Origin: Eledone cirrhosa
Lineage: Eukaryota
NCBI GenBank assembly: GCA_964016885.1
Contig: OZ024740.1
Location: forward strand, 89,094,001 to 89,158,000
Direction of reading: 5' to 3'
DNA length: 64,000 nt
Position 1 is the first letter of the stretch, and each line of letters starts with the position of its first letter. The translations under genes and the position numbers were made by a program. The notes beneath the pieces were generated by a model. The model was not told the DNA's origin. It searched no databases and was given only the letters and a program-made list of their open reading frames with translations. This document shows positions 1 to 57,524 of the stretch, one piece after another.

Positions 1-2358
1 GATTGTTTTAGCAAGAAGCTAACGGCATTCTATAACATATATGCGACTATAACGTCAAGATGGGAAAAGTAGTTAACGAAAGATTTAGGAAAAATAACTC
101 AAACTAATCTCAAAAGAGAATCAGGATATAAATTCTTCCACAGAATTTAGTAAAATCCAGGGAAAAATCTATAGACCTTTAACTCATGATAAAATAAAGT
201 TTGAAACACTTATCCTTCAATTTGGAATAACATCAAATGCTCTGTATAGTCTTAAAAGACTATTTCATGAAAACTTTCAGTGGAGATGGTCACGGTTGGA
301 TTTCATTCATCAGCAGAGCTCAACAGAAACCAGTGCTCTCACAGTAGTATAATCCGAAAAAGGGAATTCTAAAGCTGGCTAGTTCGCCTTCATGTGTATT
401 TATGAAAAAGCACATGAGGAAAAGACGGGGCTAGTGACGTCAGGATGGAAGTGAATGTTTATTTACAAGAAATAGCAGTCAAATACATTCTGAAAAAAAA
501 CTCTACAAAGGAGTTCAGCAAAATAGCAATAATTATCACAGTTTTTATGAAAAAAACCGGGATTAGTCACAGATCGTTTAAGCACTCTAGGAAAAGAATC
601 CGAGTATAAATATAAATGAGAGGTATAGAGATTGTTTTAGCAAGATGCTAACGGCATTCTATAACATATATGCGACTATAACGTCAAGATGGGAAAAGTA
701 GTTAACGAAAGATTTAGGAAAAATAACTCAAACTCATCTCAAAAGAGAATCAGGATATAAATTCATCCACAGAATTTAGTAAAATCCAGGGAAAAATCTA
801 TAGACCTTTAACTCATGATAAAATAAAGTTTGAAACACTTATCCTTCAATTTGGAATAACATCAACTGCTCTGTATAGTCAAAAAAGACTATTTCATGAA
901 AACCTTCAGTGGAGATGGTCACGGTTGGATTTCATTCATCAGCAGAGCTCAACAGAAACCAGTGCTCTCACAGTAGTATAATCCGAAAAAGGGAATTCTA
1001 AAACTGGCTAGTTCGCCTTCATGTGTATTTATGAAAAAGCACATGAGGAAAAGACGGGGCTAGTGACGTCAGGATGGAAGTGAATGTTTATTTACAAGAA
1101 ATAGCAGTCAAATACATTCTGAAAAAAAACTCTACAAAGGAGTTCAGCAAAATAGCAATAATTATCACAGTTTTTATGAAAAAAACCGGGATTAGTCACA
1201 GATCGTTTAAGCACTCTAGGAAAAGAATCCGAGTATAAATATAAATGAGAGGTATAGAGATTGTTTTAGCAAGAAGCTAACGGCATTCTATAACATATAT
1301 GCGACTATAACGTCAAGATGGGAAAAGTAGTTAACGAAAGATTTAGGAAAAATAACTCAAACTAATCTCAAAAGAGAATCAGGATATAAATTCTTCCACA
1401 GAATTTAGTAAAATCCAGGGAAAAATCTATAGACCTTTAACTCATGATAAAATAAAGTTTGAAACACTTATCCTTCAATTTGGAATAACATCAAATGCTC
1501 TGTATAGTCTTAAAAGACTATTTCATGAAAACTTTCAGTGGAGATGGTCACGGTTGGATTTCATTCATCAGCAGAGCTCAACAGAAACCAGGGCTCTCAC
1601 AGTAGTATAATCCGAAAAAGGGAATTCTAAAACTGGCTAGTTCGCCTTCATGTGTATTTATGAAAAAGCACATGAGGAAAAGACGGGGCTAGTGACGTCA
1701 GGATGGAAGTGAATGTTTATTTACAAGAAATAGCAGTCAAATACATTCTGAAAAAAAACTCTACAAAGGAGTTCAGCAAAATAGCAATAATTATCACAGT
1801 TTTTATGAAAAAAACCGGGATTAGTCACAGATCGTTTAAGCACTCTAGGAAAAGAATCCGAGTATAAATATAAATGAGAGGTATAGAGATTGTTTTAGCA
1901 AGAAGCTAACGGCATTATATAACATATATGCGACTATAACGTCAAGATGGGAAAAGTAGTAAACGAATAATTTAGGAAAAATAACTCAAACTCATCTCAA
2001 AAGAGAATCAGGATATAAATTCATCCACAGAATTTAGTAAAATCCAGGGAAAAATCTATAGACCTTTAACTCATGATAAAATAAAGTTTGAAACACTTAT
2101 CCTTCAATTTGGAATAACATGAAATGCTCTGTATAGTCTTAAAAGACTATTTCATGAACACTTTCAGTGGAGATGGTCACGGTTGGATTTCATTCATCAG
2201 CAGAGCTCAACAGAAACCAGGGCTCTCACAGTAGTATAATCCGAAAAAGGGAATTCTAAAACTGGCTAGTTCGCCTTCATGTGTATTTATGAAAAAGCAC
2301 ATGAGGAAAAAACGGGGCTAGTGACGTTAGGATGGAAGTGAATGTTTATTTACAAGAA
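1..2358 (-). repeat. Tandem array of a 629-bp unit (~3.75 copies, runs off the window start), each unit carrying a hammerhead ribozyme
   Basis: GATTGTTTTAGCAAG recurs at 1, 630, 1259 and 1888; units are nearly identical; the array ends at (TA)n at ~2359. Confidence 0.97.
239..319 (-). ncRNA. Type I hammerhead ribozyme (further copies 868-948, 1497-1577, 2126-2206)
   Basis: Minus strand: stem I GCTCTG / CTGATGA / stem II ATGAAA...TTTCAT / GAAA / stem III TAGTC-ttttaa-GACTA / TA / stem I' CAGAGC. Confidence 0.88.
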
Positions 2359-2376
2359 TATATATATATATATATA

Positions 2377-2625
2377 CGTAGGTCCCGGGTTGAGTGGGGG
2401 ATAACCACAGTAAGTAAGGTACTCAATACATGGCAGAGTAAAATTTTTTTATTTTATTTTATTTTATTTTATTTTATTTTATAGAAGGAGCTTCTACAGG
2501 ACTAGTACTGTTTCATTCAGATGAAATCTTCAGGAAGCTGTTCACCTGCTTCCTGAAGATTTCATCTGAATGAAACAGTACTAGTCCTGTAGAAGCTCCT
2601 TCTATAAAATAAAAAAAATAAAAAA
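2377..2625. mobile_element. Fold-back PLE pLTR remnant between two (TA)n tracts
   Basis: Perfect inverted repeat 2481-2605 (58-bp arms, 9-nt loop); the left arm extends to the TA tract at 2376. Confidence 0.8.
2548..2596 (+). ncRNA. Type I hammerhead ribozyme (mirror copy 2490-2538 on minus)
   Basis: GCTTC / CTGAAGA / t-TTCA-tc-TGAA-t / GAAA / CAG-tactagtc-CTG / TA / GAAGC. Confidence 0.85.
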
Positions 2626-57103: not shown

Positions 57104-57139
57104 ATATATATATATATATATATATATATATATATATAT

Positions 57140-57524
57140 GTAAGAATATTTTCGAAACAGCGAGCGTGTTTGAAATTATTATAAATGTAAGCTATCGCCG
57201 TATTTTGACTAAAGAAATTAAAGAAATTATTTAGCCTGATAGTAGGGTTAAGAACCCTCGGAGAAATGGAAAAAAGACGAGTATTGACGTACATGGGAGT
57301 CGAACCCACATCTTTGGTTATCCAGACCACTGTGCTACCATTTAGACCAACACATCATGATGTGTTCGTGTAAACAGTAGCACAGTGGTCTGGATAACCA
57401 AAGATGTACGTCAATACTCATCTTTTTCCATTTCTCCGAGGTTTCTTAACTCCACTATCAGGCTAAATAATTTCTTTAATTTCTTTAGTCAAAATACGGT
57501 GATAGCTTACATTTATAATAATTT
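57140..57524. mobile_element. Fold-back element with a tRNA-like head, between (TA)n tracts
   Basis: Inverted arms spanning 57173-57524 centred at CATCA|TGATG (~57357). Confidence 0.8.
57286..57356 (-). ncRNA. tRNA-like sequence (pseudo-tRNA or SINE head)
   Basis: Acceptor stem GATGTGT/GTACGTC, A-box TGGTCTAAATGG, anticodon arm TGGT-ctggata-ACCA, T-arm TGGG-TTCGACT-CCCA. Confidence 0.7.

Follow-up and report, generated by a model that had tools for sequence, protein, structure and literature searches.

The closest described relatives of the repeats considered here are Penelope-like elements (PLEs) and retrozymes. The 'tail' of a PLE is bounded by two start sites of the reverse transcriptase (RT), and extension from both target strands has been observed in vitro (PMC11167929); genomic copies carry this tail at one end only and include inverted 5' copies, and the Hydra elements insert into (TA)n (PMC8557442). 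Mobilization of retrozymes by PLEs has been proposed from co-occurrence and from homology to PLE pseudo-long terminal repeats (pLTRs) (PMC7229834; bioRxiv 10.64898/2026.07.22.740005); the word 'inverted' is absent from the main text of PMC7229834. Hammerhead PLEs in (TA)n, inversions, tails and, as a hypothesis, retrozyme mobilization are already published, and in the accessible parts of this literature, to which all comparisons below are limited, the origin of the inverted one-tailed PLE shape and the enzyme moving animal retrozymes are open questions. Here we describe a stretch of 64,000 nucleotides, called the window, from the 3.0-Gb genome of Eledone cirrhosa (contig OZ024740.1; G000:C1:89094001-89158000). 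It is rich in (TA)n, with 55 tracts of at least five units, and holds PLE sequence, broken RTE and other long interspersed element (LINE) sequence and a mariner-like fragment. The window is probably a pile-up of (TA)n insertions, comprising coding PLEs, hammerhead arrays and a tRNA-bearing unit, copied by a Penelope RT that primes twice.

Paired ends on TA tracts

The main evidence lies in how 3' ends are combined. Seven repeat families (B, C, D, F, H, T and one named 310-bp after its unit) have two fixed 3' ends, a short and a long one, 37-140 nt apart. When distinct inverted pairs without an internal TA tract were scored, one short end was combined with one long end in B (7/7), C (12/12), F (5/5), T (18/18), D (28/30) and H (13/13), giving 83 of 85 pairs (p = 9e-23 when compared with the at most 50% that independent ends would allow), the family-level loci being mostly the best-scoring 30 of hundreds to thousands, with pair ends that had to touch TA. 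Because TA contact was required in the selection, the end pairing is the test and the contact is not. The 5' junctions are variable, often with an overlap of 1-4 nt, and multi-unit inserts cross the ribozyme cut sites. At least four alternating A/T letters are found at 6 of 11 priming sites, as read from natural long copies, compared with 2.5% of random positions.

Since the non-coding repeats display this paired footprint, they were likely copied by the same Penelope machinery as the coding ones. The first-pass annotation had proposed a single PLE-driven mechanism spreading many non-coding ribozyme parasites. The footprint on B, F and T sustains the mechanism, but C, D, H and a further family, G, are ends of coding PLEs, and a ribozyme is not required for the footprint because none is present in family T. 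With at least two PLE lineages in the genome, the one mechanism would be served by several enzymes.

The orientation of hammerheads toward (TA)n, named in the first-pass annotation as a test of the proposal, holds genome-wide. Sampling 990 kb as 10-kb regions (99, evenly spaced, on 12 contigs) yielded 62 hammerhead matches, 60 of them distinct, compared with 0-2 in shuffles, which extrapolates to roughly 180,000 intact hammerheads in the genome. After three matches near region edges were dropped, a (TA)5+ tract lay within 250 nt on the 3' side of 47 of the remaining 59 hammerheads and on the 5' side of 16, with 19.2 expected from random positions in the same regions. TA was present only 3' in 33 hammerheads and only 5' in 2 (p = 4e-8, where the arms of one insertion are not independent). 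The accompanying suggestion that AATAAA commonly follows the ribozyme is rejected: the motif occurs within 30 nt of 8 of the 62 hammerheads (2.7 in shuffles), and within 60 nt the count is still 8 against 5.1, which is not above background.

The paired ends also bear on how palindromes arise. Among 93 short-spaced palindromes, 41 are TA-flanked and have the PLE geometry, 19 are TA-centered and 33 are of other kinds. Fold-back repair at cruciform TA breaks, after or independently of insertion, could account for palindromes too, as could assembly artefacts, and the TA-centered and unclassified groups as well as two ribozyme-free, TA-centered palindromes of the window (58361-58485 and 61595-63164) speak for such an origin. 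Fold-back would, however, copy one end twice, whereas nearly all scored pairs have two different ends, and the arms differ by 1-8%. Against artefacts, tandem and opposite-strand joints of family T recur in contigs from three public runs, all of a single sample that may itself have been used for the assembly. As a general explanation we consider this highly improbable; given the heterotypic ends, fold-back remains valid only for the TA-centered class. The two palindromes in the window form a class apart from the PLE hairpins, and the second of them runs into an open reading frame (ORF) at 63116-64000 that looks Helitron-like.

The idea that PLE insertion underlies the density of TA tracts and palindromes is borne out only in part. 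Recurring end families account for 422 of 1,382 high-complexity TA-tract sides; the largest of them is RTE-like, and this commonest TA-abutting end (40 sides) matches, by eye, the end of the RTE LINE in the window. That LINE, at 8812-11613, is 5'-truncated directly on the TA tract 11614-11661 and has a duplicated 3' end.

Hammerheads and repeat families of the window

An Rfam scan of the window listed no hammerhead among the best 150 of 155 matches, and a dedicated structural scan for type I hammerheads was therefore written. It found 14 strict hammerheads with a stem II spacer of up to 90 nt and 15 with a spacer of up to 110 nt; in 100 local dinucleotide shuffles the 14-match scan gave a mean of 0.04 and a maximum of 1. 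A scan allowing one core mismatch yielded 1 extra match against 0-2 in shuffles and was not used by itself. Comparison with 251 hammerhead contexts taken from other parts of the genome and grouped into 36 clusters added 8 degenerate hammerheads, a weak one at 46508 being dropped, and the full tabulation, which includes motifs found by eye, comprises 29 hammerheads under 12 family labels of our own, so the earlier estimate of about 25 motifs from roughly ten families was a fair one. Minimal PLE hammerheads act as dimers via self-complementary stem III loops. Among the short stem III loops of the 36 cluster representatives, 23 of 30 are self-complementary (18 perfect and 5 odd-length palindromes), compared with a mean of 6.7 and a maximum of 14 in shuffles, although the scan did not demand this feature. 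By their sequence, the motifs are genuine hammerheads of a predicted self-cleaving type.

The families that are coding PLE ends are represented as follows.

2377-2625: family C hairpin, with outward hammerheads at 2489-2539 (-) and 2548-2596 (+); long (tailed) end left, short end right
3861-4058, + strand: family G hammerhead-bearing end, facing TA 4059
about 18740-18835, - strand: second, degenerate copy of family G
7990-8163, + strand: family H end with a variant hammerhead core; further arms in 19025-19800
12676-13304, - strand: second Hydra-like PLE, broken GIY-YIG end with CxCX5C linker
13365-18688, - strand: family D Neptune-like PLE of 5,322 bp, its ORF broken by stops and frameshifts
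15405-17555, 14842-15435, 14286-14879 and 13810-14295: ORF pieces of family D
13604 (-, damaged), 17679 (-) and 18515 (+): pLTR hammerheads of family D
about 18194-18688: inverted arm of family D; the element as a whole has its long end on the left and its short end on the right, each on TA

All 30 best loci of family C end on TA, 25 at the short site and 5 at the long site, and longer copies lead into ORFs of 750-820 aa with DKT and a CxCX5C linker and without CCHH. DKT, a C-terminal GIY-YIG domain and CxCX5C were read by eye in three loci (L340, L345 and L356), two of which (L345 and L356) have the N-terminal motif RWR; L131 contains a 5.2-kb inverted unit. The hairpin at 2377-2625 is a truncated and inverted pLTR of a coding Hydra-like PLE. 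G-type ribozymes stand behind Hydra-like coding sequence in two copies, and family H flows into a Hydra-like ORF in two loci and is interpreted as the pLTR of a Hydra-like PLE. In the core of family H (8090-8150, 19130-19190 and 19580-19690), A replaces U4 in most copies while stems I-III are kept, and 22 of 36 counted copies share one core reading; this appears to be a fixed natural hammerhead variant and a predicted ribozyme. For family D, a CX2-5CxxC linker and CCHH within GIY-YIG are present at 13810-14295 and 17885-18253, with one cysteine changed in the former; the Pfam GIY-YIG match (E 6e-4) is below the cut-off, and the position of DKG reads DKS in the broken copy of the window. The labels Hydra-like and Neptune-like are based on these sequence motifs.

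Elsewhere in the genome, long-ORF copies reach 750-820 aa in the Hydra-like and up to about 1,250 aa in the Neptune-like lineage. PLE coding sequence makes up at least 5.2% of the 990-kb sample, and a first look gave about 41,000 RT candidates. Many of the supposed non-coding parasites, those of families C, D, G and H, are 5'-truncated or inverted ends that belong to coding PLEs of the Hydra-like and Neptune-like kinds, and much of what the first-pass annotation called an ecosystem consists of ordinary truncated PLE ends.

The other hammerhead families are these.

1-2358, - strand: family A, 629-bp non-coding unit, right part of an array of 5.8 units
313, 942, 1571 and 2200: family A hammerhead cores, one per unit
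54456-57102: family B, non-coding 555-bp units in an inverted array whose left end is the long one and whose right end is the short one
54721 (-), 55276 (-), 55845 (+), 56400 (+) and 56955 (+): the five family B hammerheads
43140-43828: family F hairpin bearing hammerheads at 43381 (-) and 43725 (+), with its long end on the left and its short end on the right
42843-43048, + strand: family E hammerhead end with one core mismatch, facing TA 43049
53176-53230: intact copy of family E between TA tracts 52990 and 53280
11662-11830, - strand: family K hammerhead, its stem II spacer 93 nt long, facing TA 11614-11661
53460-53791: family M hairpin with degenerate hammerheads at 53532 (-) and about 53721 (+)

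The geometry claimed at three scales is found in the 2377-2625 hairpin, the 2,647-bp array of family B (54456-57102) and the 5,322-bp PLE of family D: in each, the ribozyme strands face outward to TA and the junction is 5'-to-5'. The family A array is not inverted. Its fixed 3' end falls outside the window, about 1.28 kb to the left, and its 5' end adjoins TA 2359-2376; all 18 family A arrays with both ends covered share this single 3' end, are uninverted and span 0.6-5.8 units, and their 5' ends are scattered, none of them at the cut site. In the family B array of the window the junction is at about 55710-55731, and within the unit 118 nt separate the two 3' ends. A majority of B junctions show an overlap of 1-4 nt; this one has about 20 added letters. 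Nested insertions are visible where A and C, and likewise B and T, share a TA tract.

A hammerhead unit of 310 bp forms an inverted array outside the window (L133:3742-7923), with 11 identical full units and one short and one long end; its insertion site is the TA tail of a family C copy, and it is very young. The A, B and 310-bp units fold well as circles (z -3.6 to -5.3), and these three families are retrozyme-type tandem non-coding units with one type I hammerhead each. In family F the 5' end recurs, the loci examined gave no link to coding sequence, and the head matched no known RNA family. A genome search with family E gave no match, which is uninformative since very common words were skipped. 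A probable hammerhead labeled J, at 8355-8440, has a bulged stem III and is nearer to its 5' than to its 3' TA tract.

Units are more alike within than between arrays (2.6 versus 7.1 differences in B); opposite arms of B differ by 0.64 (11 pairs), and the 11 identical 310-bp units are spread over both arms. Such likeness is expected if a whole array is written in one event. The alternative is that all of these repeats are debris of autonomous PLEs, in which pLTR fragments were duplicated locally into satellites and not retrotransposed (cf. Xenopus retrozymes). The coding-PLE ends of C, D, G and H fit this, local amplification has been proposed (bioRxiv 10.64898/2026.07.22.740005), and both the family A array of the window and a 17-unit B array are heterogeneous. 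The A, B and T arrays are, however, scattered across many contigs; their 3' ends are fixed and lie on TA, their 5' ends vary, and the inverted arms of B and T have near-identical units; multi-unit arms on both sides of an inversion strain a local origin. Nor was coding sequence found upstream of 56 B-type and 14 A-type ribozymes (41 and 8 of them with at least 700 nt readable). We therefore regard debris as an unlikely explanation and favor copying by Penelope RTs.

A ribozyme-free repeat and the proposed priming mechanism

The hairpin that ends the displayed sequence was considered as a hammerhead element as well, a reading that does not hold.

57140-57523 (57140-57524): family T hairpin without a hammerhead; the left end is the long one and the right end the short one, with 38 nt between them in the unit
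57285-57356, - strand: tRNA-like gene in the family T hairpin; both arms begin at the tRNA 5' end

No hammerhead core is present on either strand, and Rfam scans revealed no ribozyme family. The unit of T measures 262-272 bp and occurs as a circularly permuted tandem of up to 10 units (C4:61.01 Mb) with a tail of 38 nt. Each unit contains a tRNA-like gene, called Ser-GGA by ARAGORN and matching the Rfam tRNA model with 36-47 bits in 9 of 10 units. Seven arms in the 990 kb correspond to about 20,000 genome-wide. As a circle the unit is not unusually stable (z -0.9). A copy beside Hydra coding sequence in L280 was considered as a pLTR and is read instead as an insertion with a clipped arm.

In loci unselected for upstream sequence, 16 T arms reach the tRNA 5' end; 11 of these terminate between -2 and +3 relative to it, and three insertions do so with both arms, which suggests an RNA 5' end at the tRNA start. 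That end may stem from a Pol III start or from RNase P cleavage taking the place of the ribozyme. A run of five T follows about 9 nt after the tRNA, and Pol III read-through would therefore be needed.

A tRNA-derived head with 5' ends at the head is a trait of tRNA-derived short interspersed elements (SINEs), and it raises the question of whether T and the non-coding arrays were moved by LINEs, of RTE or another type, whose twin priming merely resembles PLE insertion. The SINE-like arms of T, the RTE and other LINE sequence in the window and the frequency of the RTE-like end on TA all point that way. The inverted segments that LINE twin priming leaves do not overlap, and a single 3' end is tailed; in T the inverted arms overlap, the 3' ends fall at two fixed sites, circular permutation reaches 10 units, and no A-rich or simple-repeat tail is seen beyond the target TA. 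The permuted tandem and the two 3' sites also set T apart from SINEs, which are single linear units with a LINE-type 3' tail, while its one-end tail, inverted 5' copy, partial tandems and (TA)n target are those of PLE-mobilized sequences. LINE-driven movement thus appears a shade less likely even than local debris.

The preferred mechanism, copying by a twice-priming Penelope RT, would run as follows. The GIY-YIG domain would nick both strands of a TA tract, and the RT would prime twice, once per target strand, at two fixed RNA sites, each target 3' end pairing with a short A/U-alternating RNA patch at either the upstream site or the downstream (tail) site. Joining of the two cDNAs by their far ends would give the palindrome, and a family with one site (A) would give plain 5'-truncated arrays. 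Arrays would be written in a single event from circular or uncut multimeric RNA. Each insertion would split its TA tract into two new targets, which stutter at the priming site may lengthen. At least three trinucleotide copies are found at 7 of 32 terminal and 0 of 75 internal short sites of family T (p = 1e-4), and the 3' TA tract of family A is longer than the 5' tract in 16 of 18 arrays (medians 29.5 and 15 nt, p = 0.004). Both may point to repeats added at priming; asymmetric cutting or 5' resection could also cause the asymmetry in A. A wider proposal, that a whole set of non-coding passengers, a ribozyme-free repeat with a tRNA head among them, is served by PLE RTs through obligatory paired two-strand priming, with a telomerase-like stutter by which the RTs lengthen and multiply their own (TA)n targets, is put forward as tentative, and we would not expect it to hold in full.

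Besides the selection of loci described above, several observations weigh against the twice-priming mechanism and its extension. Two family D pairs are short-short. Tail regions have no significant shared fold except in B, and PAc of Anolis primes without homology to its target (PMC11167929), unlike the micro-match seen here. A single circular template is at odds with the family A array of the window, in which 15 variable columns in 5 units form an alternating pattern, and with a B variant that L140 carries in two units that are not equivalent. For family H the evidence of stutter is no more than borderline (5/21 versus 0/17, p = 0.053). Derivation of the T tail from the D pLTR was rejected as not significant, 33 of 500 shuffles being as good. 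Finally, the pairing of families with autonomous PLEs worked for C, D, G and H, whereas no partner was found for the non-coding A, B, F or T in the loci examined, which cover about 2 Mb of the genome.

Some further features accompany these repeats. A mariner-like fragment at 46751-47599, with 85-nt inverted ends, lies at the long end of a hairpin at 47600-48036, whose family has short and long ends in two other loci and no clear hammerhead. The LINE at 29598-34810 is largely complete, with an endonuclease-RT ORF and a long ORF1 region, and is not TA-flanked. In another locus (L132:3055-4023), a 323-aa ORF resembles, by eye, a two-domain small heat-shock protein.

Comparison with known systems

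Families C and H and the element at 12676-13304 resemble the Hydra-clade PLEs in their C-terminal GIY-YIG domain, DKT and CxCX5C motifs and lack of CCHH, and also in the pLTR hammerhead, (TA)n insertion, one-end tail and inverted 5' copy (PMC8557442). They differ from that clade in having RWR rather than RWK, tails of 72-87 instead of 30-40 nt, a 3' untranslated region of about 1.5-2 kb and units of up to 5 kb rather than less than 3 kb (PMC8557442). Family D is closer to the Neptune clade, with its CX4CxxC linker and two cysteines inside GIY-YIG (PMC8557442), and shares with Neptune and with the Poseidon element PAc of Anolis an ORF whose start lies within the pLTR, a tail bounded by two RT start sites and an AT-rich target (PMC8557442, PMC11167929). 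Strict short/long pairing and the micro-match to the target are seen here and are not stated for PAc in the accessible text of PMC11167929. The A, B and 310-bp arrays are comparable to non-LTR retrozymes, being tandem and non-coding with a type I hammerhead per unit (PMC7229834; bioRxiv 10.64898/2026.07.22.740005); in contrast to the published ones, arrays here carry a PLE footprint of fixed 3' sites on TA, tail and inverted arms. Family T is reminiscent of the schistosome Sm-alpha and Sj-alpha repeats, which have a tRNA-derived head, a high copy number and a link to hammerhead satellites (PMC2770079). Sm-alpha combines its tRNA-derived sequence with a hammerhead, whereas T has none and shows the PLE tail, inversion and (TA)n targeting.

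In open-licence PubMed Central and bioRxiv texts, as far as accessible, we found neither strict pairing, nor its presence on retrozyme arrays, nor a ribozyme-free tRNA unit, nor stutter. No PLE-dependent tRNA SINE was found in the same open-licence sources. The short/long rule is a simple footprint by which any repeat can be scored as PLE-mobilized, and the roughly 180,000 intact hammerheads, together with long-ORF copies of two PLE lineages, make this genome a source of young substrates on which direct tests can be run, among them whether an RT related to telomerase adds microsatellite units. Compared with the published systems, the new part is the insertion-footprint evidence that PLEs mobilize retrozymes and a SINE-like element: the 83/85 rule connects genomic inversions with the two start sites of PAc mapped in vitro, and it places retrozyme arrays and a tRNA repeat on the PLE machinery by mechanism and not just by homology.

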